From the IMG/VR virus record IMGVR_UViG_3300031669_005479, positions 138,815 to 202,814 of that record: a stretch of 64,000 nucleotides of DNA. One strand, 5' to 3'. Shown here one piece after another: positions 39,746-64,000 of this stretch. This DNA is from a virus (taxonomy: Duplodnaviria > Caudoviricetes). The notes under the pieces are model-generated. The model did not search any database. It had not been told where the DNA came from and saw only the letters and a program-made list of their open reading frames with translations. How positions within the stretch are numbered: the first letter of the stretch is position 1; each line of letters opens with the position of its first letter. Position numbers and translations under genes: made by a program.

Positions 39746-39776
39746 CTTGTATTTATAATTTTATTATATATCTTTG
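39746..39776 (+). promoter_or_regulatory. Bacteroidota-type primary-sigma promoter of tRNA cluster 1
   Basis: CTTG-N19-TATCTTTG matches the -33 TTTG / -7 TAnnTTTG consensus. Confidence 0.8.
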
Positions 39777-39814
39777 TATCGATTTTGTTTATACATAGTT
39801 TTAAAGTTTTAGTT

Positions 39815-39889
39815 ATGAAAAATTTAACACATACACAACCCCAACCGAAACAACAGCCACAAATTGTTGAATGGGGAAGTTATGCTTGA
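39815..39889 (+). CDS. attenuator leader peptide 1 (Gln/Pro/His-rich)
   Basis: MKNLTHTQPQPKQQPQIVEWGSYA; upstream of the Pro/Pro/His/Gln/Gln/Gln tRNAs; contains GAATGGGG complementary to the terminator 5' arm. Confidence 0.85.
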   Translation: MKNLTHTQPQPKQQPQIVEWGSYA

Positions 39890-39914
39890 ATTTTTCGAAA
39901 GATGATTTTAAGTG

Positions 39915-39950
39915 AAAAAAACCCCATTCTTAATTGAATGGGGTTTTTTT
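39915..39950 (+). terminator. attenuator terminator 1
   Basis: AAAAAAACCCCATTC-ttaatt-GAATGGGGTTTTTTT. Confidence 0.9.
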
Positions 39951-40007
39951 GTAACAAAAAAATTTTTATTTCGTACAATAGTTCATTGACATATTAATAT
40001 TTTATAT

Positions 40008-40082
40008 CTAGGTGTTCCGCAGATGGATATACGGGCGTGCCTTGGAAGCACGTGTTCGCAGGTTCGAATCCTGCTACCTAGA
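40008..40082 (+). tRNA. tRNA-Pro(TGG)
   Basis: CTAGGTG/TACCTAG acceptor, CGTGC-CTTGGAA-GCACG, GTTCGAATC. Confidence 0.93.
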
Positions 40083-40167
40083 GGTAATCAAATTAAACTA
40101 CCTGCACGTGGTGATTACTGCACGGTTGAATAAACCGACCAAATGTTTAATGTATAATATATATGGT

Positions 40168-40677
40168 ATGAGTAATATAAGCGATATACTTAAAGAAGCA
40201 AAAAGTAAAGGATATTATGCCGATGAATATGGTAAAATTTATTCAGCGAAGAAATTAATTTCATTACGAAATAGAGATAATCGGTTAAATTTTACCATAA
40301 GATATTATGGAAAAAGAGTTACAATTGCCGTACATAAGTATGTTGCATATTTAAAATATGGTGATAAAATTTTTGATGATGGTATTGAAGTAAGACATTT
40401 AAATGGAAATTCGCTAGATAATTCATATGAAAATATTTTAATTGGAACTCATAGCGATAATATGCTTGATATTCCAAAAAATGTTAGAATAAAAAAAGCA
40501 ATATCAGCATCAAGTAAAAATAGAAAATTTGGTGATGATATCATTAAGAATATTATGAATGATAAAAATAATGGTATGTCATATAGTAAATTATGTGAAA
40601 AATATAATACAAGTAAATCGACATTAAGTTATTTATTTAATAATGCGTATTATAGTGGTGCTAGAAATATAGAGTAG
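40168..40677 (+). CDS. HNH homing endonuclease between two tRNA-Pro genes
   Basis: VHKYVAY...VRHLNGNSLDNSYENI...GTHSDN and a C-terminal HTH; start could be 40150. Confidence 0.88.
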   Translation: MSNISDILKEAKSKGYYADEYGKIYSAKKLISLRNRDNRLNFTIRYYGKRVTIAVHKYVAYLKYGDKIFDDGIEVRHLNGNSLDNSYENILIGTHSDNMLDIPKNVRIKKAISASSKNRKFGDDIIKNIMNDKNNGMSYSKLCEKYNTSKSTLSYLFNNAYYSGARNIE

Positions 40678-40743
40678 TAGCGCAGTTGGAAGCGTACCGC
40701 ATTTGGGATGCGGGGGTCGTGAGTTCGAGTCTCACTTACTCTA
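40671..40743 (+). tRNA. tRNA-Pro(TGG), second divergent copy
   Basis: AGAGTAG/TTACTCT, CCGCA-TTTGGGA-TGCGG, GTTCGAGTC. Confidence 0.93.
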
Positions 40744-40750
40744 CTAAACA

Positions 40751-40824
40751 TGGTGATTGAAGCATTAAAGTGATGCGTCAGACTGTGAATCTGAAGAAGA
40801 CGGGTCAGTACCGTCCTTTCACCC
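40751..40824 (+). tRNA. tRNA-His(GTG) with an atypical T-loop
   Basis: TCAGA-CTGTGAA-TCTGA; T-arm GACGG-GTCAGTA-CCGTC. Confidence 0.85.
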
Positions 40825-40829
40825 AAATA

Positions 40830-40893
40830 TCGATTCTACAATCGATAAATATATATTATCGGTTGTAGAATCGATAAATATATATTTATCGAT
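40830..40893. repeat. nested inverted repeats / palindrome
   Basis: CGATTCTACAATCGATAA...TTATCGGTTGTAGAATCG overlapping ATCGATAAATATATATTTATCGAT. Confidence 0.8.
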
Positions 40894-41056
40894 GTGATAG
40901 ACGGCAAATGAGTTGGTGTTAAAGAAGACATAACCAAAGATAAGTTAAATAATCTTAGAGTAGATGTAATGCAGAAGATACGAAAAGATATTGTAGATGG
41001 TAAATGTCAATTATTTACATACGAAAGAAAATTTTATTAATTAATTAATATAATAC

Positions 41057-41130
41057 TGTCTCGTGGCGCAATCGGCTAACGCTCCTGACTCTGAATCAGA
41101 TGACTACGGGTTCGAATCCTGTCGAGACAA
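41057..41130 (+). tRNA. tRNA-Gln(CTG)
   Basis: TGTCTCG/CGAGACA, CTGA-CTCTGAA-TCAG, GGTTCGAATCC. Confidence 0.92.
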
Positions 41131-41192
41131 CAATAGTATTTTTTTGCAAAAAGTAGCATTTTTCGATACTTTCCGCAAAATATAACTAATAT

Positions 41193-41277
41193 TGACCTCT
41201 GGTGGAATTGGCTAAACACAACTGTCTTTGAAGCAGTCGTCCGTAAGGATTTGCAAGTTCGAGTCTTGCGAGGTCAA
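41193..41277 (+). tRNA. non-canonical tRNA(TTG), Gln anticodon with a long variable arm
   Basis: TGACCTC/GAGGTCA, ACTGT-CTTTGAA-GCAGT, V-arm TCC-GTAA-GGA, Leu-like D-arm GTGGAATTGGCTAAACAC. Confidence 0.85.
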
Positions 41278-41282
41278 CAAAA

Positions 41283-41405
41283 ATAGGGTAGAATGGTGAG
41301 ACAGCTTCCCCTCGGACTAAAGGCATCAGGATTTGACGATGCCGATGTGAAGCATAGGTCAAGCAATGCATTGACTTAGGTCGAACCAAGAAAATCGAGG
41401 TTATT
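41283..41405 (+). ncRNA. candidate structured non-coding RNA between tRNAs
   Basis: Helices CCTCG/CGAGG, GGCATC/GATGCC and AGGTCAA/TTGACTT; GC-richer than the background. Confidence 0.4.
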
Positions 41406-41408
41406 TAT

Positions 41409-41481
41409 TGCTATGTAGTGTAATGGTTTAGCACAAGTGACTTTGAATCACTTAGTTACAGTTCGAATCTGTACATAGCAA
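41409..41481 (+). tRNA. tRNA-Gln(TTG), canonical
   Basis: TGCTATG/CATAGCA, AGTGA-CTTTGAA-TCACT, GTTCGAATC. Confidence 0.93.
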
Positions 41482-41490
41482 CTATTTTTA

Positions 41491-41572
41491 ATGTGGAAGT
41501 TAAAAAAATTCATTATTTTTACAAAAACATTATGTGGAAGTTAAAAAAATTCATTATTTTTACAAAAACATT
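41491..41572 (+). repeat. perfect 41-bp tandem duplication
   Basis: ATGTGGAAGTTAAAAAAATTCATTATTTTTACAAAAACATT twice. Confidence 0.92.
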
Positions 41573-41575
41573 ATT

Positions 41576-41959
41576 ATGAAGTATAACCTATATCTTGATG
41601 ACTTCCGTGACCCCATAGATTCTGCATATTATCTTAATAATCCTATTTATGAAACACTTCAATGGATTGTTGTTAGAAATTATGATGAATTTATTAAGTG
41701 TGTTATAGAAAATAGTATTCCAGAAGTAATATCCTTCGATCATGACTTGGCAGCAACACATTATGACCATCAATCTAATATAGAATACGATGTATTTACA
41801 GAAAAAACTGGTTATGATTGTGCTAAATGGTTTATTGATTATGTGATTGATAATAAATCGAAACTACCAAAAACAATACTTATTCATTCGATGAATCCTG
41901 CTGGAAGTGCTAATATTAAATCGCTATTTGATAGTTATATTAAATCATTAAATCTGTAA
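41576..41959 (+). CDS. cyclic-phosphate-processing receiver-like domain protein
   Basis: LYLDDFRDP, VVRNYDEF, ISFDHDL, TGYDCAKW, IHSMNPAG. Confidence 0.8.
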   Translation: MKYNLYLDDFRDPIDSAYYLNNPIYETLQWIVVRNYDEFIKCVIENSIPEVISFDHDLAATHYDHQSNIEYDVFTEKTGYDCAKWFIDYVIDNKSKLPKTILIHSMNPAGSANIKSLFDSYIKSLNL

Positions 41960-42011
41960 CAAATTTTAAATGTTTTCGTATAATCAACATATTTATATAT
42001 AAATCGATATT

Positions 42012-42653
42012 ATGAAAAATGGATTAAATGAAAAACAAATACTATTCGAAATGATGGAAAAAATAAATCCAGATTTCAGATATAATACCGATGTCATTGA
42101 AGGTGTTGGAGATAAATTTTTATCTAATAAACATATAGTTCCCGATGAATTTGATGAATTCGATAAAACATATTCTGCAACACAGAATGATAAAAATGGT
42201 GTTGTTTATCAGGAAGGTAATTGGCAGATATTAAAAAATCCCCAATCATTAACGGGTTTTGGTGCATCAGTCAGAGGAATCATTATGGATAATGGTGATT
42301 TATATCTTGAATCTCATGCAAAAAAAATTCATAATGATATACTTAAGATTTTAACAGAAATTGGTGTATTTACACAAATGCCACAAATAAATTGGGGTAT
42401 GAGAATTCCCCAAGAGAGTGGGTTTTTAACCGTTCAGAGATATAAAAATTCTCCATATATTGCTATAGGTGAAAGTAATCGAATTATATATAAAATCGAT
42501 AACTACGATAAACTAAAAAAATATTATGATGAATATATTGATAAGGCAAAAATAAAAATGCCAAACATTGAATTTATCGATAAACTTGTTGGTTCAAAAA
42601 GTGTTGTAAATACAAGTGGTGCTAATATTATGAATGAAACCTATTTAAAATAG
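42012..42653 (+). CDS. hypothetical protein with KQILFEMM leader
   Basis: MKNGLNEKQILFEMMEKINPDF. Confidence 0.7.
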   Translation: MKNGLNEKQILFEMMEKINPDFRYNTDVIEGVGDKFLSNKHIVPDEFDEFDKTYSATQNDKNGVVYQEGNWQILKNPQSLTGFGASVRGIIMDNGDLYLESHAKKIHNDILKILTEIGVFTQMPQINWGMRIPQESGFLTVQRYKNSPYIAIGESNRIIYKIDNYDKLKKYYDEYIDKAKIKMPNIEFIDKLVGSKSVVNTSGANIMNETYLK

Positions 42654-42932
42654 TTATTTCATCATCTAATTTCCTAAGTATTTATCATTAAAGATATAAA
42701 CATATTTACAATATAACAGTTAGGACTGTTATGGTTTCGACCAAATTAGGGATGATAAACGTTCGCTACTATTATCATCCCTTTCTTTATTGTAAAAATT
42801 TATCCAAAATTATGCATTAATTATGTTGCTAATATTATTGGTAGATTGATAATAAGATATTTAAAATATTTTTTCTTGTTTTTATAATAATTAAATATTT
42901 CCTTTGCATTGAAAATTTAAACACACAAAACT

Positions 42933-43835
42933 ATGAAAATTACTATTGATTATCTTAAAAAAATTAGGGCTTGTGATGAAGCAATTGCTAGGTTTAACAA
43001 CACACCTGAACTACATTCAGTTAATATTGAAAAATCAACTGAAATTATTGTTGGTGATGTATCATTATTTAATGATATTAATTGGTTAGTTAATAAGTTA
43101 AAAGGTAAACTGCCTGTTAGAAAGTTAACCTATAAAGGTTCTGATGGTTATTGGTCAGAAATGACTTATGATGATAATGGAAATAAGTTAACATATAAAA
43201 ATTCTGATGGTTATTGGTTAGAATATACCTATGATGAAAATGGAAAATTGTTAACCACTAAAAATTCTGATGGTTATTGGTTAGAATATACCTATGATGA
43301 TAATGGAAAATTGTTAACCACTAAAAATTCTGATGGTTATTGGGAAGAAAACACCTATGATGATAATGGAAATAAGTTAACACATAAGAAATCTAATGGT
43401 AGTTGGGAAGAAAACACCTATGATGATAATGGAAATAAGTTAACATATAAAAATTCTGATGGTTATTGGGAAGAAAACACCTATGATGATAATGGAAATA
43501 AGTTAACATATAAAAATTCTAATGGTTATTGGGAAGAAAACACCTATGATGATAATGGAAATAAGTTAACATATAAGAATTCTGATGGTTATTGGGAAGA
43601 AAACACCTATGATGATAATGGAAATTTGTTAACCACTAAAGATTCTAAAGGTTATTCGTGTGAATATACCTATGATGAAAATGGAAATAAATTAACCTAT
43701 AAGGATTCTAAAGGTTATTCGTGTGAATATACGTATGATGAAAATGGAAATAAATTAACCAATAAGGATTCTAATGACAATATTACTGATTACCCTAAAT
43801 TAAAATATGATTTGACTATTTTTGAAATAAAATAA
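42933..43835 (+). CDS. YD-like 22-aa tandem-repeat protein
   Basis: About 10 copies of GYWEENTYDDNGNKLTYKNSD (66-bp unit). Confidence 0.85.
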   Translation: MKITIDYLKKIRACDEAIARFNNTPELHSVNIEKSTEIIVGDVSLFNDINWLVNKLKGKLPVRKLTYKGSDGYWSEMTYDDNGNKLTYKNSDGYWLEYTYDENGKLLTTKNSDGYWLEYTYDDNGKLLTTKNSDGYWEENTYDDNGNKLTHKKSNGSWEENTYDDNGNKLTYKNSDGYWEENTYDDNGNKLTYKNSNGYWEENTYDDNGNKLTYKNSDGYWEENTYDDNGNLLTTKDSKGYSCEYTYDENGNKLTYKDSKGYSCEYTYDENGNKLTNKDSNDNITDYPKLKYDLTIFEIK

Positions 43836-43896
43836 TTCTAATAACTAATTGAGAATTAAGTATTTGAGAAATATATTGAAAATATTTTAAAAATAG

Positions 43897-43934
43897 TTTG
43901 CAATTATTGTAACATTTTATACCTTTGCATCGTA
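43897..43934 (+). promoter_or_regulatory. overlapping primary-sigma and ECF-like promoters of tRNA cluster 2
   Basis: TTTG-N19-TACCTTTG overlapping TGTAAC-N17-CGTA; near-identical block at 63739-63776. Confidence 0.8.
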
Positions 43935-43975
43935 TTTAGATAGAAAGAAACAAAAACAATTTAAATTATAAAACA

Positions 43976-44065
43976 ATGAAAAATTTACTCGACATATTAA
44001 TGGCAACTTTGGTGGAAGTCCTATTATGGGCAGACGCAGAGGATAAATTACGCACAGTCGGGTAA
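43976..44065 (+). CDS. attenuator leader peptide 2 (Leu/Asp/Glu/Val/Ala/Trp/Met)
   Basis: MKNLLDILMATLVEVLLWADAEDKLRTVG; ends in GTCGGGT complementary to the terminator 5' arm. Confidence 0.85.
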   Translation: MKNLLDILMATLVEVLLWADAEDKLRTVG

Positions 44066-44094
44066 TGTATATTACACACTCCTTTCTTAATAAG

Positions 44095-44129
44095 AAAAAC
44101 CCGACAAACGAAAGTAAGTCGGGTTTTTT
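44095..44129 (+). terminator. attenuator terminator 2
   Basis: AAAAACCCGAC...GTCGGGTTTTTT. Confidence 0.9.
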
Positions 44130-44169
44130 GATTTTTAGGTTGGATGTTCTTTGACATGTTGGAAATTTT

Positions 44170-44246
44170 GGTGATGTAGTTCAGTTGGCTAGAATGGGGC
44201 ACTGTCTATGCTCAGGTCGAGGGTTCGAGTCCCTTCATCACCGCCA
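44170..44246 (+). tRNA. tRNA-Asp(GTC) with encoded CCA
   Basis: GGTGATG/CATCACC-G-CCA, GGGCA-CTGTCTA-TGCTC. Confidence 0.95.
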
Positions 44247-44262
44247 AATTATAATATTAAAT

Positions 44263-44346
44263 GCGGCGTTATACAAGTGGCTAAAGTGGCAAGACCTTCA
44301 ATCTTGTATCGAAAGATTTCGAGGGGTTCGAATCCCCCACGCCGTA
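44263..44346 (+). tRNA. non-canonical tRNA(TTC), Glu anticodon with a long variable arm and C33
   Basis: GCGGCGT/ACGCCGT, CAAGA-CCTTCAA-TCTTG, V-arm ATC-GAAA-GAT, GGTTCGAATCC. Confidence 0.75.
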
Positions 44347-44441
44347 CGAAGTTCAATATGAAATATAGTGGTTTCAGAGGTTTGTTCATATTGAGGTTTA
44401 GTAATTCCAAGGTCGATAATAATGACCAAAAATCTCGCCAT

Positions 44442-44513
44442 GCTCGATTCGTCTAACGATTAGGACAAATGGTTTTCGTCCATTAAATGAGGGTTTGATT
44501 CCCTCATCGAGTA
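44442..44513 (+). tRNA. tRNA-Glu(TTC), canonical size
   Basis: GCTCGAT/ATCGAGT, AATGG-TTTTCGT-CCATT, GAGGG-TTTGATT-CCCTC. Confidence 0.9.
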
Positions 44514-44522
44514 CAATAATTT

Positions 44523-44593
44523 GGGGAATTGATGTAATGGTAGCGTGTTTGGCCTACATCCAAAACGAAATAGTTCGATTCTATTATTCCCTA
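44523..44593 (+). tRNA. tRNA-Val(TAC) with C33
   Basis: GGGGAAT/ATTCCCT, TTTGG-CCTACAT-CCAAA. Confidence 0.87.
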
Positions 44594-44604
44594 CAAAATA
44601 AATT

Positions 44605-44679
44605 GCGAGTGTAGCCGAATGGTTAATAGGCAACTGTTTTAGAAACAGAAATTTGCGGGTTCGACTCCCGCCATTCGCA
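44605..44679 (+). tRNA. tRNA-Leu(TAG) lacking the long variable arm
   Basis: GCGAGTG/CATTCGC, CTGT-TTTAGAA-ACAG, short variable loop. Confidence 0.85.
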
Positions 44680-44702
44680 CAAAGGGTTAAAAACAAAACT
44701 AT

Positions 44703-44789
44703 GGGGATGTGATGAAATTGGCGATACATGCCAGACTTAGAATCTGGTGCTAATAAACTGGCGTGTGGGTTCGAATCCCACCATCCTCA
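44703..44789 (+). tRNA. tRNA-Leu(TAG), canonical class II
   Basis: GGGGATG/CATCCTC, CCAGA-CTTAGAA-TCTGG, long V-arm. Confidence 0.95.
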
Positions 44790-44902
44790 CGTTTAGACCG
44801 TTTAGAATTTTTATTAGTAATGAAAATGCTAGTAAACATAAAAGTTGTTCAATCACATTGGATGAATTATTGACGAGAATTAAAATGTGGAATGTGAAAT
44901 AT

Positions 44903-44977
44903 GGGGCGTTAACTCAGTCTGCCTAGAGTGCTGCACTTGCAATGCAGAGGTCATCGGTTGAAATCCGATACGTTCCA
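44903..44977 (+). tRNA. tRNA-Ala(TGC)
   Basis: GGGGCGT/ACGTTCC with G3:U70, CTGCA-CTTGCAA-TGCAG. Confidence 0.94.
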
Positions 44978-45034
44978 CGAGTAGACCGTTTTAGAATTTT
45001 TTATTGACTAAGAGTAACGTAGAAAAATTCATAT

Positions 45035-45108
45035 GGCTCTGTAGCCGAACTGGAATAGGCAACTGTTTTAAAATCAGAAATTTGTGGGTTCGAGTCCCAC
45101 CAGAGCTA
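45035..45108 (+). tRNA. tRNA-Leu(TAA) lacking the long variable arm
   Basis: GGCTCTG/CAGAGCT, loop TTTAAAA; paralogous to 44605..44679. Confidence 0.83.
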
Positions 45109-45267
45109 CAAATCGTCTGGAGATTCCAGACAAAGTTTTTATAGTAAAATTTATTATTGTTTAATGAATGAAATTGAGTTACATGTTATTGATACTACAG
45201 AACAAAAATGTTTTAAAAAATGTATCTCTGAAAAGTATTTAAATATGATTATTAATATCATTAATAC

Positions 45268-45350
45268 ACGTCCGTAGGCATTGGTAAGCCAAACAGTCTC
45301 CAAAACTGCAACCCGAAAGGGTCTTGCTCGTTCGAATCGAGCTGGACGTG
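45268..45350 (+). tRNA. non-canonical tRNA-Trp(CCA) with a long variable arm and 4-bp anticodon stem
   Basis: ACGTCCG/TGGACGT-G, aCAGT-CTCCAAA-ACTGc, V-arm ACCC-GAAA-GGGT. Confidence 0.87.
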
Positions 45351-45443
45351 CTAATTTTTATAAATTTTGTAACATTTTGAATAGAGTATACGTATCATAA
45401 GAATCATTTAGTATTTTATTAATTTTGTAAAATTTATAAAGTT

Positions 45444-46181
45444 ATGTATATTATTGCAAAGAAAAACGAAAAGGATTATTATGATGGTGTTGTTGGTACC
45501 GTAGGTATTGATAAAACAATTGTGTATGAACGTAATATTATTGATGTCGAAAACAATAAAATTCCACCATTATTTAAAGAAGCAACATTATCCAATTTCG
45601 ATAATATTAAAAATAATTACTTTCATCAACTACATGACTTCAGAATTGATAAAATCCATGAAAATAAATTTCCATACGATTCATACTTTATTGTAGGATT
45701 TTGTGGAAAACTATATGTGGGTTGGAAACTTTATAGTTTTAAAAACATCAATAACGATGTGCTTATTACAATTACGTATGATTTGGATTATATCTTTGAA
45801 CTTTTTGACGAAAAAAATCGATTTGGTAATAGTCTATATGATATTGTTAGTTATATTTTAAACTATGATGCCATCGATTTGTTTAGAGAATTAAATACAC
45901 CAATTTTCATATATGATTATGATAGTAATGTGAAAAATATTAGTGGTTATTGTCGTGAATATCATAATTCAAAATTCATTATAAATCCACTATTAAAAAA
46001 CTATGAATTTTATAAAAAATTTGATAGTTTTCAAACATTTCAAGAAATAAGTATGTTTATTGGTGGAGTGTTAGGTAGTAAAGAAAAGAAAATTATTGAA
46101 GTTGAGGACAAGTATAAAATTGCACAACATGGCTTTAATAAATGGAGTTTTAGAAAAGAACCTAAAGATAAATCGATATAA
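45444..46181 (+). CDS. hypothetical phage protein
   Basis: 245-aa ORF after TGTAAC-N17-CGTA at 45368-45394. Confidence 0.75.
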   Translation: MYIIAKKNEKDYYDGVVGTVGIDKTIVYERNIIDVENNKIPPLFKEATLSNFDNIKNNYFHQLHDFRIDKIHENKFPYDSYFIVGFCGKLYVGWKLYSFKNINNDVLITITYDLDYIFELFDEKNRFGNSLYDIVSYILNYDAIDLFRELNTPIFIYDYDSNVKNISGYCREYHNSKFIINPLLKNYEFYKKFDSFQTFQEISMFIGGVLGSKEKKIIEVEDKYKIAQHGFNKWSFRKEPKDKSI

Positions 46182-47127: not shown

Positions 47128-47202
47128 CCCCTAGTGACGTAACTTGGCAAACGTGTTCGGCTCAAACCCGAAATTTTGTGGGTTCGAATCCCACTTAGGG
47201 GA
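47128..47202 (+). tRNA. tRNA-Leu(CAA) lacking the long variable arm
   Basis: CCCCTAG/TTAGGGG, TTCGG-CTCAAAC-CCGAA, 5-nt variable loop. Confidence 0.85.
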
Positions 47203-47277
47203 CAACTAATTTAAATTTAATGTTATGAAAAAAATGTATGAAGTTTTGTAAATTGCTCTAATGCAATTGCAAAACAA

Positions 47278-47559
47278 ATGAAAAGTAAAAAAATCGTGGA
47301 CACTACCACAAATCGTGGCGAATTCAATCGTGCTTATAAATCGTATCTTGAACATGATGGTAAAATTCGTTGCACTTATTGTTCATATCATCGTGGCGAA
47401 AATAAAACCACTCATATGTATTGGGGTGATGATGAGCATATTAAATACCCTAACTGGAAATTAGTTTCAAAGTATTCTAAACGGTGGATGAAAAAACCGA
47501 TGAGAATGATTGAACGCACCAATCGATGGGGTAATAATTACGTTGAGATTAAATTTTAG
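47278..47559 (+). CDS. hypothetical basic protein (CxxC/H)
   Basis: IRCTYCSYHRGEN. Confidence 0.65.
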   Translation: MKSKKIVDTTTNRGEFNRAYKSYLEHDGKIRCTYCSYHRGENKTTHMYWGDDEHIKYPNWKLVSKYSKRWMKKPMRMIERTNRWGNNYVEIKF

Positions 47560-47568
47560 ATGCTCTTT

Positions 47569-47639
47569 GGCGACATGGTATAAAGGTAGAACACCTCTCT
47601 CATAAGGAGTTGATACGGGTTCGATTCCCGTTGTCGCTA
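47569..47639 (+). tRNA. tRNA(CAT): Met or lysidine-Ile2
   Basis: GGCGACA/TGTCGCT, loop CTCATAA, GGTTCGATTCC. Confidence 0.87.
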
Positions 47640-47680
47640 CAATCCCCTCGAATTCGAGGGGATTATAATTTCCAACATGG

Positions 47681-47932: not shown

Positions 47933-47950
47933 AATTATATTTAGATTATA

Positions 47951-49065: not shown

Positions 49066-50151
49066 ATGGAAATGTTAAAAAAGGTTGATTGGAATTTGTT
49101 GAATACTTATATTGATAATAGTCATATTGTAGCAAATAAACACCCACAATATGATATTTGGATATTGAACTATTCACCAAAGGCACAATCTAATAAATTT
49201 TGGGATATATATACCCTATCTTGTCGTGGATTGGTGATTGATGTCGATGGTAATATATTAGCACGTCCATTTCAAAAATTTAAAAATTATGAAGAGCATA
49301 ATCCATCAGAAATCGATATGTCACAAGAATTTGATATTTTCGAAAAAATGGACGGTTCGTTAATCATAGTATTTTACTATGTGCCACGTATGGAATGGAT
49401 TGTCGCTTCAAGAGGTTCATTCATTTCTGAACAGTGTATGGAAGCAAAGAAAATGATTGATGTAAATATTTACAATAAACTTAAAACTGATTGTACATAT
49501 TTATTTGAAGTAATATATCCAGAAAATAGAATTGTTCTTGACTATGGAAATAGAAGAGAATTGGTATTGCTTACAAGGATTAAAACTGAATCTGGTATGG
49601 AAATGTACTATGATGATTTAGTTGCAACATATTCAAAATACTTTACTGTTGTAAAGAAATACATACTAAATGATATTCATGACCTAAATGATTTAAAAGC
49701 AATTGAAGAGGAAAACAAAGAAGGATTTGTTGTTAGATTCTTAAGTGGATTTAGAGTTAAGGTGAAATTTAGCGAATACATTAGATTGCATGGTATTTTA
49801 ACAAATGTTTCTAATCTAACTGTTTGGGAACACTTAAAAAATAATTATGATTTCGATGATTTGTTGGATAGAGTTCCAGATGAATTCTACAGTTGGCTGA
49901 AAAGAACAGTAAGGATATTACAAGGAGAATTCAATGAAATTGAAAGATTGGCGTTGAAGGATTTTGTAAGAATTTACTATACTAATGGAGTCACAGAACG
50001 CAAAGAATTTGCAATGGAAGCAATTAAAACTGAACATCGTTCAATACTGTTTAGATTGTACGATAAAAGAGGTTATGATGAAATTATTTGGAAACTGGTG
50101 AGACCAATATATTCAAAGCCATTTTCTAAAAATTTTGAAAATATTTCATAA
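49066..50151 (+). CDS. RNA ligase (T4 Rnl1/RnlA-like)
   Basis: CRGLV, RPFQKFKNY, EKMDGS (motif I), ASRGSF, YLFEVI, EGFVV, RVKVK. Confidence 0.9.
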   Translation: MEMLKKVDWNLLNTYIDNSHIVANKHPQYDIWILNYSPKAQSNKFWDIYTLSCRGLVIDVDGNILARPFQKFKNYEEHNPSEIDMSQEFDIFEKMDGSLIIVFYYVPRMEWIVASRGSFISEQCMEAKKMIDVNIYNKLKTDCTYLFEVIYPENRIVLDYGNRRELVLLTRIKTESGMEMYYDDLVATYSKYFTVVKKYILNDIHDLNDLKAIEEENKEGFVVRFLSGFRVKVKFSEYIRLHGILTNVSNLTVWEHLKNNYDFDDLLDRVPDEFYSWLKRTVRILQGEFNEIERLALKDFVRIYYTNGVTERKEFAMEAIKTEHRSILFRLYDKRGYDEIIWKLVRPIYSKPFSKNFENIS

Positions 50152-50162
50152 AAAATTAAATT

Positions 50163-54005: not shown

Positions 54006-54022
54006 AAATAATTACAAATTTT

Positions 54023-54064
54023 TGTAACATTTTGTTGTTTATTACGTATTTATACTTATATTTG
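54023..54064 (+). promoter_or_regulatory. stacked promoters of tRNA cluster 3
   Basis: TGTAAC-N16-CGTA, GTATTTAT and GTTG-N19-TATATTTG all overlap here. Confidence 0.75.
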
Positions 54065-54101
54065 TAATCTGAAAAACAAACAAAATTAAAACAATAGAAC
54101 A

Positions 54102-54194
54102 ATGAGAACTTTTGGTAAATATTATTTTAGTAAAAAATCATATAAGAAACAACTTATAGGAATCGGGAATAGTATGTCCAAAAGAAAATCATAA
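54102..54194 (+). CDS. attenuator leader peptide 3 (Lys/Tyr-rich)
   Basis: MRTFGKYYFSKKSYKKQLIGIGNSMSKRKS; AATCGGG complementary to the terminator 5' arm. Confidence 0.83.
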   Translation: MRTFGKYYFSKKSYKKQLIGIGNSMSKRKS

Positions 54195-54214
54195 TGATTT
54201 TGGAATTAAACCAT

Positions 54215-54245
54215 AAAAACCCGATTCGAAAGTTTCGGGTTTTTT
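54215..54245 (+). terminator. attenuator terminator 3
   Basis: AAAAACCCGA-ttcgaaagtt-TCGGGTTTTTT. Confidence 0.9.
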
Positions 54246-54263: not shown

Positions 54264-54350
54264 GTACCTATGGCTCAATTGGTAGAGCAACTGGCTTTTA
54301 ACCAGTGGGGTTGCTAACGCACGTTGAGGGTTCGAGTCCCTCTGGGTACA
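54264..54350 (+). tRNA. non-canonical tRNA-Lys(TTT) with a 19-nt variable region
   Basis: GTACCTA/TGGGTAC, ACTGG-CTTTTAA-CCAGT, variable region GGGGTTGCTAACGCACGTT. Confidence 0.88.
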
Positions 54351-54355
54351 CAAAT

Positions 54356-54428
54356 ATCTCAGTAGCTTAGTTGGTAGAGTAGGTGTCTCTTAAACATCGG
54401 GTCATGGGTTCGAATCCCATCTGAGGTA
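54356..54428 (+). tRNA. tRNA-Lys(CTT)
   Basis: ATCTCAG/CTGAGGT, GGTGT-CTCTTAA-ACATC. Confidence 0.92.
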
Positions 54429-54434
54429 CAATTT

Positions 54435-54503
54435 GGGAGTAATTCTTTGGAGAAACCAGCTCTGTAAAAGCTCACATAGTGGGTTCGATGCCCTCTACTC
54501 CCA
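54435..54503 (+). tRNA. minimal tRNA-Tyr(GTA) with no long V-arm and a 4-nt D-loop
   Basis: GGGAGTA/TACTCCC, TTCT-TTGG-AGAA, AGCT-CTGTAAA-AGCT, GGTTCGATGCC. Confidence 0.75.
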
Positions 54504-54797
54504 CTTATTTTAGTATCAATAGTTTCCAACACCTTTAATGGATTCTAGTTTAATCGAATGCACAAAAGGGGCAATTGTTTAAAAACGATTGCCTTTTTTA
54601 TTTTCGAATGTATTTCAATGTAACGTTTTGCCATTTCCATTTCAAATATTCAGTACGATTGAGGTCTTGAATTTCTTCACGAATTATCGAAATCACACTA
54701 CTCATGATTAAATTTTTTTATTCTAAATAACCTTGCACTTTAATTAAAAATGAATTATCTTTGTGCAAAATAACTTTATGCTTAAATAATTTAATAA

Positions 54798-55745: not shown

Positions 55746-58700
55746 ATGACAAATAATATTCTTAAAAGTTTTCCCAAACAAGAGGTGGAAAAAGCAGCAT
55801 TACAATACTTTAAAGGTGATGAGTTAGCAGCAGACGTTTGGATTAAAAAATACTGTTTAAAGGATGAAAATAACTTTTATGAATTGACTCCCGATGACAT
55901 GCATCGAAGAATTGCAAAAGAAATTGCAAGAATTGAAGCAAAATATATAAATCCGCTTTCCGAAGACCAGATTTACGAAACACTAAAAAATTTTAAAAGA
56001 ATTGTGCCACAAGGCAGTCCAATGTCAGGAATTGGTAATAATTTTCAGGTAGTTTCGCTAGGAAATTGTTTTGTTGTTGGTAATGATGCTGATTCATATG
56101 GTGGAATTATTCGAATTGATGAGGAGCAAACACAATTAATGAAGCGTAGAGGTGGTGTTGGTCATGATTTGTCGATGATCAGACCAAATATGACACCAGT
56201 AAAAAACAGTGCAATTACTTCTACAGGTATCGTTCCCTTCATGGAAAGATATTCGAATAGCACAAAAGAGGTTGCACAGGATGGACGACGTGGTGCATTA
56301 ATGTTATCCGTGTCAATAAAACATCCTGATGCAGAATCGTTTATTGATGCAAAATTATTACAGGGAAAAATATCTGGTGCAAATATTTCGGTAAGAATTG
56401 ATGATGAGTTCATGAATTCGGCATTAAATGAAAAATCATATAATCAACAATATCCAATTGATGGTATCGCCAAGTATCAAAAAGAAATTGATGCATCAAA
56501 ACTTTGGAAAAAAATTGTTCACAATGCTTGGAAATCTGCCGAACCTGGTATTCTTTTTTGGGATAAAATTCTAAATGAATCAATACCTTCATGCTATGGT
56601 AAAAAATGGGTTGAAAAAAGCACAAATCCATGTGTCAGTGAAGATACATTAATATTGACAGATGATGGATATCTACCGATCAAAGAATTGGTTGGTAAAA
56701 AGGTTAATGTTTGGAACGGTGAAGAGTTTTCCGAAACCATTCCAGCAATAACTGGATATAATCAAAAAATGATTAAAATAAAATTTTCTGATGGTAGTGA
56801 ATTAAAATGTACACCATATCATAAATTCTACACTTGGAAAGGTTTTGAACGTGATGGAAAGGTAATAAAAAAGAACGGAAATGAACTTATTGTTGGTGAT
56901 AAGTTGGAAAAATATAAATTTCCAAAATTAAAACGAGATTTGAGCACTGGCCATCATATTTACATATCGACTGATAATATTGGCAATGGCTACATAACAA
57001 ATAAGGAATTTTATACTGCAGGTTTTTTTGCTGGTGACGGACATATTAAAAGAAATGATGAGTATATGATTTCATTATATGGAGTAAAAAAAGAATTAAT
57101 ACCATATTTGGAAATTATTGGTAATGAATCTGAGGATATTGCTAACGATAAAATTACGGTAAGAATAAATTTACCAGAATATTTTAAATTTAGTCCTCAA
57201 AACATACCAATTAAAAAAATAATACCAATCTATGAAAAGGGGATGCCTGAATTAGATGTGTTGAATTGGTTGGCTGGTTTAATCGATTCTGACGGTTCAC
57301 GTAATTCTGATAAAGGGTCAATATCAATTTCTTCAATAGATAAAAACTTCTTAATGCAAATTAAACTAAATATATTAAATACGTTTGGTATTAATGGAAG
57401 TGTTATTGATGAAAAGAATGGCGGTATTAAGAAAATTAAGGGAATTGAATATGAAACAAATAAATCATATAGACTAATAATTAGCGCACATAATGTTAAA
57501 AAATTATATGATTTAGGTTTAAGAACACATAGAGTTAAAATCGATGATGTTAATCCAAATCGTGATGCATCTCGATTTATAACTGTTGAATCAATTGAAT
57601 CTATCGATGATGCAGACGTTGTATATTGTTTTACTGAAGAAAAACGTGGGAGAGGTTGCTTTAATGGCGTGGTTACTGGACAATGTGGCGAATTGCCGTT
57701 GCCACCATATGATTCATGTAGATTGGTGTGCATGAATTTATATGGTTACGTTGTAAATCCTTTTACAGTAAATGCGTATTTTGATGAGGAAGCATTTAGT
57801 AGAGATGTACAGATTGCTATGAGGTATATGGATGATATTGTAGACCTAGAAGTTGAAAAAATCGATACTATTTTATTGAAAATTCAATCCGACCCAGAAT
57901 CAGACGAAATTAAGTTAGTTGAAAAGAATTTATGGGAAAAAATTCGTGGTATGGCACTTGAAGGTAGGAGAACTGGCTTAGGCGTTACTGCAGAAGGAGA
58001 TATGCTTGCCGCACTTGGCTTACGATATGGTACAGAAGAGGCGACAATATTCAGTGAAAATGTGCATAAGGGACTTAAATTAAACGCATATCGCTCATCA
58101 GTTACAATGGCTAAAGAACGTGGTGCTTTTCCAATTTATAATCATAATTTAGAATCAAGCAATCCGTTTATATTAAGAATTTTAGAAGAAGACCCACAAT
58201 TACATTACGATATGTGGACTTATGGTCGTAGAAATATTGCACTGCTAACTATTGCACCAACTGGTAGTGCAAGCTTAATGACACAAACAACATCAGGCAT
58301 TGAACCAGCATTTTTACCTGTTTATATGCGTAGACGTAAGATTAATCCACAAGAAAAGGATGTTCGTGTGGATTTTATTGATGATGAGGGTATTTCATGG
58401 ATGCAATATCCAGTATTTCATCATAAGTTTGAAATATGGTTAGAAGTTGAGGGATATGATGTTAATGTTGTTAAAACCATGAGCAAAGAACAACTTGACG
58501 AAATTGTGAAGAAATCACCCTATTATAAAGCAACATCAAATGACGTTGATTGGGTGATGAAAGTTATAATGCAAGGTAAAATACAAAAACATATTGACCA
58601 TAGCATTTCTGTTACGGTTAATCTTCCAGAATCGGTGAGTGAAGAAACTGTTGCAAAAGTATATGAAACTGGTTGGAAATCTGGTTGCAAAGGCATTACT

Positions 58701-59354
58701 GTTTATCGTGATGGTAGTAGAAATGGTGTACTTGTTGGTGCAGAAGATAATAAAAAAGAAAATTTTCACGAGAATCACACACCCAAAAGACCAAAAAGAT
58801 TGAAGGGTGAAATTCACAAATTTCAAAATAATTTGGAAAAATGGATTGCCGTTGTTGGCCTACGTGATGGTAGACCATATGAAATTTTCACTGGAAGACT
58901 TGAAAATGGATTAAGTAAATTACCTCCAAACATTAAAGACTGTGAAGTTGTTAAACAAATATTTGAAGTAGAGGAAATGGATGAGGATGGTAAAATGATT
59001 AAAGTTAGAAAAAAAAGATACGATATTGAATATATTGATAGTAATGGCGAAAAACAAATACATACTGGTTTAAACCACGCATTTAATCCTGAATATTGGA
59101 ACTATGCAAAACTTTTTTCAGGTGTACTTCGACATGGTATGCCAATTATTTATGTCTATCAACTAATTAATTCTATGAATCTAAATAGTGATCATTTGAA
59201 TACGTGGAAAAATGGCGTTGCACGTACAATAAAAAAGTACATTAAGGACGGTGAAAAAATTGAAGGTAAATGTCCTGAATGTGGTAGTGAACATTTAGAA
59301 TTTAAAGAGGGATGTTTAATCTGTATGTCCTGTGGTAGTTCAAAATGTAACTAA
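55746..59354 (+). CDS. nrdJ: class II (adenosylcobalamin-dependent) ribonucleotide reductase with intein
   Basis: SLGNCFV, RRGGVG, TNP/CGE active site split by the intein, RRTGLG, TIAPTG, KGITVYRDGS, C-terminal CPECG...CMSCG. Confidence 0.92.
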   Translation: MTNNILKSFPKQEVEKAALQYFKGDELAADVWIKKYCLKDENNFYELTPDDMHRRIAKEIARIEAKYINPLSEDQIYETLKNFKRIVPQGSPMSGIGNNFQVVSLGNCFVVGNDADSYGGIIRIDEEQTQLMKRRGGVGHDLSMIRPNMTPVKNSAITSTGIVPFMERYSNSTKEVAQDGRRGALMLSVSIKHPDAESFIDAKLLQGKISGANISVRIDDEFMNSALNEKSYNQQYPIDGIAKYQKEIDASKLWKKIVHNAWKSAEPGILFWDKILNESIPSCYGKKWVEKSTNPCVSEDTLILTDDGYLPIKELVGKKVNVWNGEEFSETIPAITGYNQKMIKIKFSDGSELKCTPYHKFYTWKGFERDGKVIKKNGNELIVGDKLEKYKFPKLKRDLSTGHHIYISTDNIGNGYITNKEFYTAGFFAGDGHIKRNDEYMISLYGVKKELIPYLEIIGNESEDIANDKITVRINLPEYFKFSPQNIPIKKIIPIYEKGMPELDVLNWLAGLIDSDGSRNSDKGSISISSIDKNFLMQIKLNILNTFGINGSVIDEKNGGIKKIKGIEYETNKSYRLIISAHNVKKLYDLGLRTHRVKIDDVNPNRDASRFITVESIESIDDADVVYCFTEEKRGRGCFNGVVTGQCGELPLPPYDSCRLVCMNLYGYVVNPFTVNAYFDEEAFSRDVQIAMRYMDDIVDLEVEKIDTILLKIQSDPESDEIKLVEKNLWEKIRGMALEGRRTGLGVTAEGDMLAALGLRYGTEEATIFSENVHKGLKLNAYRSSVTMAKERGAFPIYNHNLESSNPFILRILEEDPQLHYDMWTYGRRNIALLTIAPTGSASLMTQTTSGIEPAFLPVYMRRRKINPQEKDVRVDFIDDEGISWMQYPVFHHKFEIWLEVEGYDVNVVKTMSKEQLDEIVKKSPYYKATSNDVDWVMKVIMQGKIQKHIDHSISVTVNLPESVSEETVAKVYETGWKSGCKGITVYRDGSRNGVLVGAEDNKKENFHENHTPKRPKRLKGEIHKFQNNLEKWIAVVGLRDGRPYEIFTGRLENGLSKLPPNIKDCEVVKQIFEVEEMDEDGKMIKVRKKRYDIEYIDSNGEKQIHTGLNHAFNPEYWNYAKLFSGVLRHGMPIIYVYQLINSMNLNSDHLNTWKNGVARTIKKYIKDGEKIEGKCPECGSEHLEFKEGCLICMSCGSSKCN
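56631..57683 (+). mobile_element. Gln-terminal LAGLIDADG intein (351 aa) at the RNR active-site Cys
   Basis: Starts CVSEDT, ends GVVTGQ followed by Cys; motifs AGFFAGDG and LAGLIDSDG. Confidence 0.92.
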
Positions 59355-59560: not shown

Positions 59561-59731
59561 ATGACTAAAAAAGTAATTATTAATACATTGTACGAAAAAA
59601 GAGGCAAAGCAATTCCTACAATAGAGAATACAAGCATATCAACAATAACAAATAATAATTCCGAAACAAATAATAATTCCGAAACAAATAATAATACTCA
59701 AACTAACGATAATTCAACAAAAGATGAATGA
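59561..59731 (+). CDS. small Asn/Thr-rich protein with an 18-bp tandem repeat
   Basis: 56-aa ORF after a CTTG...TATTTTTG promoter; its TGA stop overlaps the next gene. Confidence 0.45.
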   Translation: MTKKVIINTLYEKRGKAIPTIENTSISTITNNNSETNNNSETNNNTQTNDNSTKDE

Positions 59732-60113: not shown

Positions 60114-60212
60114 TATATGAATATTTATATTCACAGAAACGTAACATTTATTATTACCATTCGTATAACTAATATTGAAAATCAAATAACTGTAAAAATA
60201 AATTGAATTGAA

Positions 60213-62480: not shown

Positions 62481-62591
62481 TATTCTTATCATCATAAAAA
62501 ATTCTCAGAATTTCTGAGAATTTTTTATGTAAATTTTACACATTTTTAAACTTATTTGGACATTTAACGTATTTATAATAAATGTTTATTT

Positions 62592-62777
62592 ATGGAACTA
62601 ATATCGATTAGTAAAGCAAGTAAAATCTTAGGTGTCACGCAAAAAACATTAAGAGTTTGGGAAAGGGATGGTGATATTATAGCATTTTACACACCTAAAG
62701 GTCATAGAAGATATAACTATGATTACATTATTGATTTAAGTAAAAATGGAAAAAAATCAGCGCAATCATTGGACTAA
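62592..62777 (+). CDS. MerR-type HTH (IS607 TnpA N-terminus-like)
   Basis: ISKASKILGVTQKTLRVWER...TPKGHRRY. Confidence 0.8.
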   Translation: MELISISKASKILGVTQKTLRVWERDGDIIAFYTPKGHRRYNYDYIIDLSKNGKKSAQSLD

Positions 62778-63672
62778 AGAACGCTGTGCTATTGAGGCGT
62801 TGAAATATAGTACCAGAAGTGATTTTTGGAAATATTCTAAATCAGCATATAATGCATCAATTAGAAATAAGTGGTTAAACGAAATTTCTTATCACATGCA
62901 CAGTAAATTAGTTGTATGGGATAGAGAAAATTGTCACCAAGAAGCATTGAAATACAAAACAAGAAGTGAATTTAATAGGTATTCATTAAATGCATATCGT
63001 TATGCATTGAAAGAACATCTTCTTGATGAAATATGTTCTCACATGATAGTTATTGGTAATAAAAAGAAAAGATGTATTTACGTATTTGAATTTGGTGACA
63101 ATTTTGCTTATGTTGGATTGACATACAATACCAATAAGCGAATCGTTGAACATTTAAGTACCAGAAATTCACAAGTATATAAACACGTTCAAACCACTAA
63201 TTTAACACCAGTATTTAAACAATTAACAGATTATCTTGATGTTAGTGATGCGATGATAAAAGAAAATGATTATTTAACACAATATGAGAATAATGGATGG
63301 AAATTATTAAATAAAGCAAAAACTGGAGCATTGGGTGGTAATGAAGTTTATTGGACTATTAAAAAATGTCATGAAGAGGCGTTAAAATACGAAAAAAAAT
63401 ATGAATTTATGAAGGGCACTCCAGCAGCATACAGTGCTGCATATAAAAACGGATGGCTGGTTGAAATTTGTGAACATATGATTGAATCATATAAGCCAGA
63501 TGGATATTGGAATATTGATAAATGTCATGAAGATGCATTAAAATATGATAAAAGAAATATCTATCAACATAAATCAAAATCTTCATACAATACCGCATTA
63601 AGGAACGGTTGGCTCGATGAAATCTGTCAACACATGCCAATACGCAGTAAAAAACATAAAAATGATAAATAA
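62746..63672 (+). CDS. GIY-YIG endonuclease flanked by repeated helical modules
   Basis: CIYVFEF...AYVGLT; repeated WTKERC..EALKY..R..F...Y..A...WL.EIC.HM modules. Confidence 0.83.
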   Translation: MEKNQRNHWTKERCAIEALKYSTRSDFWKYSKSAYNASIRNKWLNEISYHMHSKLVVWDRENCHQEALKYKTRSEFNRYSLNAYRYALKEHLLDEICSHMIVIGNKKKRCIYVFEFGDNFAYVGLTYNTNKRIVEHLSTRNSQVYKHVQTTNLTPVFKQLTDYLDVSDAMIKENDYLTQYENNGWKLLNKAKTGALGGNEVYWTIKKCHEEALKYEKKYEFMKGTPAAYSAAYKNGWLVEICEHMIESYKPDGYWNIDKCHEDALKYDKRNIYQHKSKSSYNTALRNGWLDEICQHMPIRSKKHKNDK

Positions 63673-63738
63673 TTTCAATTTTTTAAATTATTGGTTTTCA
63701 ACCAACTAAAAATTATTTTTATTTTTTTTTAAAAATAG

Positions 63739-63776
63739 TTTGCAATTATTGTAACATTTTATACCTTTGCAACGTA
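63739..63776 (+). promoter_or_regulatory. overlapping primary-sigma and ECF-like promoters of leader 4
   Basis: TTTG-N19-TACCTTTG plus TGTAAC-N17-CGTA; near copy of 43897-43934. Confidence 0.8.
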
Positions 63777-63821
63777 TTTAGATGAAAGTAGATTTGAATT
63801 ATAACTTTTAATTTTAAAAAA

Positions 63822-63944
63822 ATGAAAACACGAACAACAAATATTACCATTAGCACATCGATTATTAGTCGTAATGGAAGTTCTATATTCTGTTCAAATT
63901 TTACAGGCAGAAATATTGATGTTATCGGGTTATGGTTTTCATAA
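63822..63944 (+). CDS. attenuator leader peptide 4 (Thr/Ile/Ser/Arg/Asn/Gly/Phe/Cys)
   Basis: MKTRTTNITISTSIISRNGSSIFCSNFTGRNIDVIGLWFS; ATCGGGTT complementary to the terminator 5' arm. Confidence 0.8.
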   Translation: MKTRTTNITISTSIISRNGSSIFCSNFTGRNIDVIGLWFS

Positions 63945-63968
63945 AAGTAAAAGAAAACTAATAAAGTC

Positions 63969-64000
63969 AAAAACCCGATTCGAAAGATTCGGGTTTTTTT
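63969..64000 (+). terminator. attenuator terminator 4
   Basis: AAAAACCCGA-ttcgaaagat-TCGGGTTTTTTT. Confidence 0.9.

Follow-up and report, generated by a model that had tools for sequence, protein, structure and literature searches.

The end of the virus contig IMGVR_UViG_3300031669_005479 (Duplodnaviria; Caudoviricetes), from an uncultured giant phage, contains four units which probably act as ribosome-mediated attenuators of the trp/ilv type, coupling the transcription of phage tRNA genes to the speed of decoding. The stretch we have studied, called the window below, has 64,000 nt and represents the last 64 kb of a contig of 202,814 nt, which is 66% complete according to CheckV. From 39.7 kb to the end of the contig, four units show a common layout of promoter, leader open reading frame (ORF) and intrinsic terminator. 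They extend over positions 39747–39950 (U1), 43897–44129 (U2), 54022–54245 (U3) and 63739–64000 (U4); the terminator of U4 finishes exactly at the contig end (64000). The original prediction for this region had described such a layout, with a TAnnTTTG promoter, a leader of 24–40 codons and an intrinsic terminator, and all of these elements were found again in the four units. The reading as attenuators is carried by the anatomy of the units, the match between leader codons and the tRNA genes behind them, the alternative RNA folds, the covariation of pairing segments and the conservation of the units in related phages, with changes that preserve the set of encoded amino acids.

For comparison we have used five complete relatives, with genomes of 325–365 kb and 34–65 tRNA genes each, and many further related fragments. 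In about 15 related contigs protein identity is 63–78%. The GenBank phage collection contains no close relative: DNA matches are only of tRNA size and protein identity is at most 46%. The leaders form four classes, one for each unit, with 19, 13, 12 and 13 distinct relatives in classes 1, 2, 3 and 4. All elements of the units, the motif in front of the tRNA genes and the tRNA clusters of the window lie on its plus strand.

Leaders and the tRNA clusters behind them

The promoter of U1 (39747–39776) is of the Bacteroidota sigma-A type, TTG-N19-TATCTTTG, as judged from its sequence and from the relatives: the same -33/-7 layout is found in G001, G002, G004 and G005. The word TAnnTTTG is the -7 consensus of Flavobacterium (PMC9723704). 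In U2–U4 the sigma-A type promoter is overlapped by a word of the extracytoplasmic function (ECF) type, TTGTAAC-N16/17-CGTAT(TTA); a CGT box at -10 suggests an ECF sigma factor in Flavobacterium (PMC9723704). The promoter block of U2 (43897–43938) is formed by TTTG-N19-TACCTTTG (43897–43927) and TTGTAAC-N17-CGTATTTA (43907–43938). U4 has a near copy of it (63739–63780), with TTTG-N19-TACCTTTG (box at 63762–69) and TTGTAAC-N17-CGTATTTA (63749–63780). In the block of U3 (54022–54064) the ECF-type word TTGTAAC-N16-CGTATTTA (54022–52) comes first and is followed by TATATTTG (54057–64). The phage encodes an ECF-like sigma factor of about 200 amino acids with Sigma70_r2 and r4_2 domains (own genome, about 30.7–31.3 kb, L066/L067), which could read the TTGTAAC-type promoters. 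The ECF-type word is also present at 45367–45398, in front of the ORF 45444–46181.

In all four units the leader ORF begins 38–52 nt downstream of the TAnnTTTG box. The four leaders start with ATG and their frames are open in 12–19 distinct relatives per class. Leader 1 (39815–39889) has 24 codons, with nine His, Gln or Pro codons in positions 6–16 and the core QPQPKQQPQ; its frame is kept in 19 distinct relatives, and a longer ORF from 39743 begins 5' of the -7 box. Leader 2 (43976–44065, 29 codons) is mostly made of codons readable by the tRNAs of cluster 2, which serve Leu, Asp, Glu, Val, Ala, Trp and Met. Leader 3 (54102–54194, 30 codons) has a core YYFSKKSYKK in codons 7–16, with seven of its ten Lys/Tyr codons; it is retained as YYxxKKSYKK in 12 distinct relatives. 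Leader 4 (63822–63944) is the longest, with 40 codons, and from codon 3 to codon 32 it contains exclusively Thr, Arg, Asn, Ile, Ser, Gly, Phe and Cys.

The terminators are GC-rich hairpins followed by T-runs, with RNAfold energies of -14 to -21 kcal/mol. That of U1 (39922–39950) has arms at 39922–29 and 39936–43 and a T-run at 39944–50, and reaches -21.4 kcal/mol with its A/U extension. In U2 (44100–44129) the arms are CCCGAC and GTCGGG, with a T-run at 44124–29 and -17.6 kcal/mol. The terminators of U3 and U4 are found at 54220–54245 and 63974–64000. A consensus terminator scanner listed none of these four hairpins, which were detected by our own scan and RNAfold; in our reading the T-run is taken up in pairing with the A-tract, so that the scanner has no T tail to score. 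The first tRNA follows the terminator after 19–57 nt in the window. The largest distance is found in U1, 57 nt to tRNA-Pro. In U3 the T-run is about 18–19 nt from tRNA-Lys, and over the window and most relatives this distance is 5–19 nt (5–15 nt in most relatives). There is therefore no room for a separate promoter, and the tRNAs of cluster 3 would hardly be made except by read-through.

ARAGORN detects 18 tRNA genes in the window. All of them belong to three clusters directly behind U1–U3, as had been predicted for the first three units. Cluster 1 (40007–41482) contains two Pro(UGG), His(GUG), Gln(CUG) and two Gln(UUG); the tRNA-His (40753–40823) was added by Infernal with 36.3 bits, above threshold, and an ORF for an HNH endonuclease (40168–40677) is inserted between the two tRNA-Pro. 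The main part of cluster 2 (44170–45351, ARAGORN and Infernal) has Asp, two Glu, Val, two Leu(UAG), Ala, Leu(UAA) and Trp. It is trailed by Leu(CAA) and a tRNA(CAU) at 47128–47640 (ARAGORN), a trailing group which is also found in relatives. Cluster 3 (54264–54503, ARAGORN and Infernal) is formed by Lys(UUU), Lys(CUU) and a degenerate Tyr(GUA)-like sequence (54435–54503); a hairpin with a T-run (54570–54599), terminator-like as read from the sequence only, closes this operon. Clusters 1–3 serve 12 amino acids; the remaining eight make up leader 4. A lone tRNA(CAU) is found on the minus strand of the phage's own genome (C1, 89036–89122); it has its own promoter, with neither leader ORF nor terminator, and its 5' and 3' ends are initiator-like. 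Stalling in elongation could not sense an initiator.

In leaders 1–4 the own cluster has tRNAs able to read 9 of 23, 20 of 28, 10 of 29 and 34 of 39 codons. The matching codons are bunched in codons 6–16, 4–25, 6–16 and 3–32. The other clusters could read far fewer codons, with the exception of leader 3, where the large set of cluster 4 reads 17 of 29, which is about the background of that set. As an empirical null we have taken the other 1038 ATG-ORFs of 20–45 codons of the genome. The own-set shares (0.39, 0.71, 0.34 and 0.87) are reached by 5, 0, 5 and 1 of these small ORFs, which gives empirical p values of 0.001–0.006 per leader and a Fisher combined p of 1.5e-7. The true assignment of leaders to clusters is the best of the 24 permutations, with about 12 z-units vs 5.8 for the next best. 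A binomial probability against the composition of the proteome was discarded: off-frame small ORFs in an AT-rich genome have a skewed composition, so that the binomial overstates significance and the small-ORF null was used instead. The match of leader composition with the downstream tRNAs, part of the original prediction, is upheld by these figures; its weak point is the tRNA-Tyr of the window, to which we return below.

Leader 4 predicts that a cluster 4 should serve Thr, Ile, Ser, Asn, Arg, Phe, Gly and Cys. The start of the own contig has no tRNA genes and cluster 4 was not found in the own genome; the exact leader-4 word had no match in viral contigs. A 27-nt word of leader 4 matched one metagenome contig of 152,794 nt (L063), the first 127 nt of which are identical to the last 127 nt of the window. 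It is the adjoining contig of the same phage: the joint size of both contigs, 203 kb and 153 kb, fits the 325–365 kb of the complete relatives. Cluster 4 is found there at 379–4134. The tRNA order is Cys, Asn, Ile, two Ser, two Phe, Gly, Ile, Asn, Thr, four Arg and Gly, plus a suppressor tRNA with anticodon CUA. The latter, labelled 'Pyl' by ARAGORN, comes after cluster 4 (L063, 5934–6006) and is also present in G001–G004; its sequence hints at TAG read-through or recoding in some phage genes. In the approximately 15 related contigs the cluster which follows a neighbouring gene for 755 amino acids serves the eight amino acids of leader 4, and the one before that gene is always Lys and Tyr. The CAU tRNAs in the position of cluster 4 are taken to be Ile2.

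The five complete relatives divide all 20 amino acids among four clusters in the same way. The four leaders are kept there and in many fragments. A similar arrangement is found in a distant 345-kb phage (G006), where a leader of 32 codons and a terminator (L064, 1040–1186) stand ahead of a single mixed cluster for Trp, Arg, Ala, Val, Gly, Thr, Glu, Asp, Tyr, Gln and Cys. This leader holds all 11 amino acids of the cluster and has no Lys, Ser, Pro or His. G006 thus divides its tRNAs differently from the phage studied here; a departure in G005 is described below. In the Caulobacter phage phiCbK (L069, JX100813 47200–52800) rho-independent terminators are annotated directly before three tRNA groups, with a small ORF before each. 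Its gp083 (45 amino acids) has 23 of 44 residues which are Pro, Lys, Leu or Ser, ahead of Pro, Lys, Leu and Ser tRNAs; an ORF of 32 amino acids has 10 of 31 residues which are Phe, Val, Ile or Gln, ahead of the corresponding tRNAs. The layout is similar and the codon match only partial; phiCbK is a possible culturable model.

Alternative folds and evolution of the leaders

Late in each leader there is a segment of 7–9 nt (segment 2) which repeats the 3' arm of the terminator and can therefore pair with its 5' arm (segment 3). The original prediction had indicated such a pairing, and we find it in all units. Segment 2 is GAATGGGG in U1 (39869–39876) and ATCGGGTT in U4 (63924–63931), and in both units 10 nt separate its end from the stop codon. 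In U2 it is GTCGGGT (44057–44063), which overlaps the stop codon (44063–65). In the window and most relatives the distance from segment 2 to the stop is 0–13 nt for these three units. U3 is unlike the others: its segment 2, GGAATCGGG (54159–54167), lies 24 nt before the stop. The 2:3 duplexes have energies of -8 to -19 kcal/mol and beat 95–100% of shuffled leaders in nearly all 23 units. When the nascent transcript is cut before the 3' arm of the terminator, the 2:3 pairing is the minimum-energy fold in the four units of the window.

The full-length transcripts fold into the terminator. In U1 and U2 they additionally form a helix over the sensor codons, between segment 2 and an earlier segment 1. 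In U1 segment 1 is CCCCA (39839–39843), placed inside Pro/Gln codons; this helix is paired in 88% of the cells in 18 sequences and shows no covariation. In U2 segment 1 is TTACTCGAC (43985–43993), over Leu-Leu-Asp codons; in the fold of the full transcript UUACUCGAC is paired over the same codons. RNAalifold finds the terminator and an 8-bp 1:2 helix in all 11 sequences of class 2. Classes 3 and 4 have no full 1:2 helix; they have conserved hairpins over the sensor codons, next to segment 2. The hairpin of U3 (54138–54161) covers Ser-Tyr-Lys codons and abuts segment 2, as an analogue of segment 1 or of a pause hairpin. The loop between segments 2 and 3 of U2 contains a pyrimidine block, CACTCCTTTCTT (44077–44088), which resembles the 3' end of 16S rRNA in the same sense. 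It is found in U2 only; 9 of 11 sequences retain CCTCCTTTC, and most relatives have ACCTCCTTTCTT.

The two partners of the 2:3 helix change together. Counting of pairs in MAFFT alignments was hampered in class 4, which is out of register, and in class 3, which is nearly invariant; we have used instead an alignment-free test, in which the duplex of a leader with its own terminator arm is compared with its duplexes with the arms of homologous units. Leaders pair better with their own arm in each of the four classes (permutation p 0.0002–0.0006). In class 1 the helix is 95% paired on the alignment, with two compensatory double changes; in G002 segment 2 changes from GAATGGGG to GAACGGGG jointly with a change of the arm from CCCCATTC to CCCCGTTC. 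In class 2 the two or three bases 5' of GTCGGG covary with the arm as ACA/TGT, GGA/TCC, GTA/TAC, TCA/TGA and AA/TT. The pairs C:G, G:C, U:A and A:U are all represented, with three to four Watson-Crick types at each of two positions, and the encoded residue shifts with the covarying bases between Thr, Gly, Val, Ser and Lys. In the hairpin of class 3 a change of Lys AAG to AAA is matched by CTT to TTT in three sequences. In class 4, the sequence L003 has GTGTCGGG as segment 2 and CCCGACAC as arm.

The word GAATCGGG of class 3 is read as ..R-I-G.. (RIGN) in most phages and as ..E-S-G.. (MESG) in L008 and L017, where it lies in another frame, so that it is conserved as RNA and not as peptide. Among the variants of the 12–19 distinct leaders per class the synonymous share is that expected at random, which indicates that no position-specific peptide is under selection. 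The replacements tend to stay within the cognate set of amino acids: in class 2 71% of them do so, where 40% are expected, and in class 4 70%, where 48% are expected, with P about 1e-4. The expectation was calculated from single-base neighbours; in classes 1 and 3, where the sets are small, the test has no power. The composition of the leaders is thus conserved and their order is not, which by the sequence comparison fits a codon sensor and not a folded micro-protein.

A proposed switch for tRNA transcription and its alternatives

A scheme can be proposed in which transcription would start at the Bacteroidota-type promoter, overlapped in U2–U4 by the ECF-type, and a ribosome would translate the leader of 24–40 codons. 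If its cognate codons are read fast, the ribosome would run over segment 2, segments 3 and 4 (the two arms of the terminator) would pair and the polymerase would terminate before the tRNA genes; in U1, U2 and U4 a ribosome at the stop codon would also cover segment 2. If any aminoacyl-tRNA of the cluster is scarce, the ribosome would stall in the sensor stretch, holding segment 1 and freeing segment 2. The latter would pair with segment 3, no terminator would be formed and the whole tRNA cluster would be transcribed. The new tRNAs would then relieve the stall, a direct negative feedback. Each leader mixes two to eight amino acids, so that it would work as an OR gate for its cluster, and the four leaders would jointly cover all 20 amino acids. 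Leader-peptide attenuation has been suspected in amino-acid operons of Flavobacterium (PMC9723704). From the features described above we infer the translation of the leaders, the read-through upon stalling and the physiological signal. The predictions of the attenuator reading checked in the sequence agree with it for codon match, cluster 4, nascent fold, covariation and replacement within the set; for the hairpins over sensor codons the 1:2 helix is clear in U2 and plausible in U1, with partial counterparts in U3 and U4.

Transcription could have a second input. A conserved motif, GTTC(T/A)TTGACAT, is found about 10–14 nt 5' of the first tRNA in U1, U2 and U4, also in relatives, and it recurs inside clusters. 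It is GTTCATTGACAT in U1 (39981–39992, 14 nt 5' of tRNA-Pro) and GTTCTTTGACAT in U2 (44146–44157, 12 nt 5' of tRNA-Asp), and for U4 it lies on L063 (137–148 and 355–366). The motif is often trailed by gyTGGaAAtt and is also found before some internal tRNAs in relatives. In 534 kb there are 104 matches of the motif, 40 of them within 40 nt of a tRNA. The rest of the genome makes no use of it, U3 lacks it, and it is not accompanied by a conserved -33 partner. We have compared it by eye with sigma-70, sigma-54 and sigma-A promoters and none fits well. The motif may serve either as a second promoter or as a signal for processing.

Several observations weigh against the units as attenuators. Leader 3 has only one third of Lys/Tyr codons, and the tRNA-Tyr of the window is doubtful or degenerate, with 23.2 bits in Infernal, below threshold; Tyr genes are clear in all relatives. 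In U3 a terminating ribosome would not cover segment 2, given the distance to the stop, so that termination must rely on kinetic coupling. G005 carries a tRNA-Phe in cluster 1 and a tRNA-Pro in cluster 4 for which the leaders have no corresponding codons. The covariation in classes 1 and 3 comes from few variable sequences, and the sequences of all comparative tests are related to each other, so that their p-values are not strict probabilities. Finally, if the motif before the first tRNA is a promoter, the attenuator could be only one of two inputs.

Different explanations may be given for the same sequences. It is very unlikely that the short ORFs are functional micro-proteins, for example a hydrophobic peptide in the case of leader 2, whose composition merely resembles the tRNA sets. 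Such proteins would account for the open frames, whose lengths are similar throughout the relatives, and for well-conserved blocks such as SRNGxxIFCS and LLWA. These blocks, however, coincide with RNA helices, and where the terminator arm changes, so do the C-terminal residues. The random synonymous share and the shuffling of residues within the set, instead of their conservation by position, also speak against a protein; leader 2 itself has Asp/Glu in its hydrophobic stretch and almost no Ile, Phe, Gly or Ser. We also consider it unlikely, to a lesser degree, that each unit is a small gene of its own or a constitutive damper, with clusters transcribed from an own GTTCTTTGACAT promoter and terminators which serve for insulation. 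The nearly fixed spacing of the motif before the first tRNA in U1, U2 and U4, its recurrence inside clusters and the terminators annotated directly before the tRNA groups of phiCbK would agree with it. It leaves unexplained the codon match, the prediction of cluster 4, the covariation of segment and arm and the replacements within the set. Neither does it suit U3, which lacks the motif and has only 5–19 nt between T-run and tRNA, nor a motif with no conserved -33 partner which is not used elsewhere in the genome.

The nature of the signal is a different question, as a switch with the same anatomy might respond to amino-acid supply and tRNA charging, or to the rising demand of the AT-rich codon usage of the phage while host tRNAs decay, working as a device for timing or dosage. 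We regard this as possible, though somewhat doubtful. A stalled ribosome cannot distinguish a missing from an uncharged tRNA, as established for the trp and his attenuators; all 20 amino acids are covered, beyond the known targets of nucleases, and the 34–65 tRNA genes of the relatives fit a general supply for codons. On the other hand, genes for RNA repair are found nearby, a T4 Rnl1-type RNA ligase (49066–50151) and a protein with a cREC_REC domain (41534–41959), and Lys and Tyr, known targets of PARIS and of retron Ec78, form a channel of their own (PMC11464382, PMC12819146). The sequence by itself does not separate this explanation from one based on loss of tRNAs. An anticodon nuclease as trigger, which had been suggested originally, is speculative and one possibility among several; the attenuators would sense only the speed of cognate decoding.

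The genes around the units belong to the phage and, as indicated by the ligase and the cREC_REC protein, have a flavour of RNA repair. Mobile elements are present in and around the tRNA region: besides the HNH endonuclease of cluster 1, there is a LAGLIDADG-containing intein within the ribonucleotide reductase (55746–59354) and a 308-amino-acid protein (62746–63672) whose relatives adjoin genes for GIY-YIG nucleases. Two repeats were also noticed. Directly behind the last tRNA-Gln, before the cREC_REC gene, about 41 nt are perfectly duplicated in tandem (41493–41575), and a repeat with a period of 63 nt (43340–43620) is found within an ORF with RHS repeats (42933–43835), where it yields five evenly spaced, identical promoter-like matches.

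Relation to known systems

Leaders which respond to several amino acids are known in enterobacteria, such as those of ilvGMEDA (Ile/Leu/Val) and thrL (Thr/Ile), besides the classic trpL and hisL. The phage units share with these systems a short leader rich in regulatory codons, exclusive 2:3 and 3:4 pairings, with a 1:2 helix in U2 and plausibly in U1, an intrinsic terminator and, in U1, U2 and U4, a stop codon placed to mask segment 2; one leader would also sense several amino acids, as in ilv and thr. They differ in that they control tRNA genes and not enzymes, so that the product itself relieves the stall, in that they sense up to eight amino acids each and in that the four of them partition all 20. 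They are phage-encoded, have Bacteroidota-type and ECF-type promoters and show no sequence similarity with the enterobacterial leaders. A search of Rfam with U1 gave only hits below threshold, PyrR and Thr_leader (the latter 25 bits vs a threshold of 55 bits).

A parallel in function is the pheST attenuator of E. coli, in which the Phe-rich pheM leader controls phenylalanyl-tRNA synthetase. There a component of the decoding apparatus is attenuated by the reading speed of its own cognate codons, as it would be in the phage. In pheST it is one cellular enzyme for one amino acid, whereas in the phage it is tRNA arrays for groups of amino acids. T-box riboswitches also have a leader RNA with a choice of terminator and antiterminator which answers to the status of tRNA. 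They bind uncharged tRNA without translation, through Stem I, the specifier loop and the T-box sequence, while in the phage units the signal would lie in a translated frame; the T-box covariance model has no match at E<=1 in 39000–64000. To our knowledge, the leader-peptide attenuators described control enzymes of amino-acid biosynthesis or an aminoacyl-tRNA synthetase. The genes behind the terminators of the phage units are tRNA genes, and this is the one defining feature of the family in which they clearly depart from it. Full-text searches of the literature yielded no account of tRNA genes, either of phages or of cells, under the control of leader-peptide attenuation, in agreement with the original statement that no attenuation of phage tRNA arrays was known.

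Phage tRNA genes, as far as we know, are usually seen as helpers for codon usage or as decoys against nucleases, and their regulation has hardly been examined. The tRNA-Lys of T5 is reported to counter AriB of PARIS (PMC11464382) and a phage tRNA-Tyr to counter PtuAB of retron Ec78 (PMC12819146). As in these cases, the tRNAs of the phage studied here would replace lost host tRNAs, and the two targets, Lys and Tyr, are the sole members of cluster 3. In the parts available, neither study mentions a sensor or a regulation of the phage tRNA genes (PMC11464382, PMC12819146).

If our interpretation is true, this would be the first case of attenuation of tRNA genes and the first virus which directly senses the capacity for translation. 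Textbook attenuation would be extended to a new class of genes, and the grouping of tRNAs in giant phages would find an explanation. The units would provide a sequence signature for tRNA regulons in metagenomes and also compact, portable sensors of tRNA availability, of use in synthetic biology and in studies of immunity directed against tRNA. The virus would gauge decoding capacity for each group of codons and answer with exactly the tRNAs which are short. On whether, in several unrelated lineages, large phages supply themselves with tRNA on demand, with sets of attenuators which cover the whole code (four channels in the present phage), measure the decoding speed of groups of codons and switch on the block of tRNAs in short supply, we are evenly divided. 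If this is so, such a phage would ride out both the decay of host tRNAs and defences which cleave tRNA, with a dedicated channel for Lys and Tyr.

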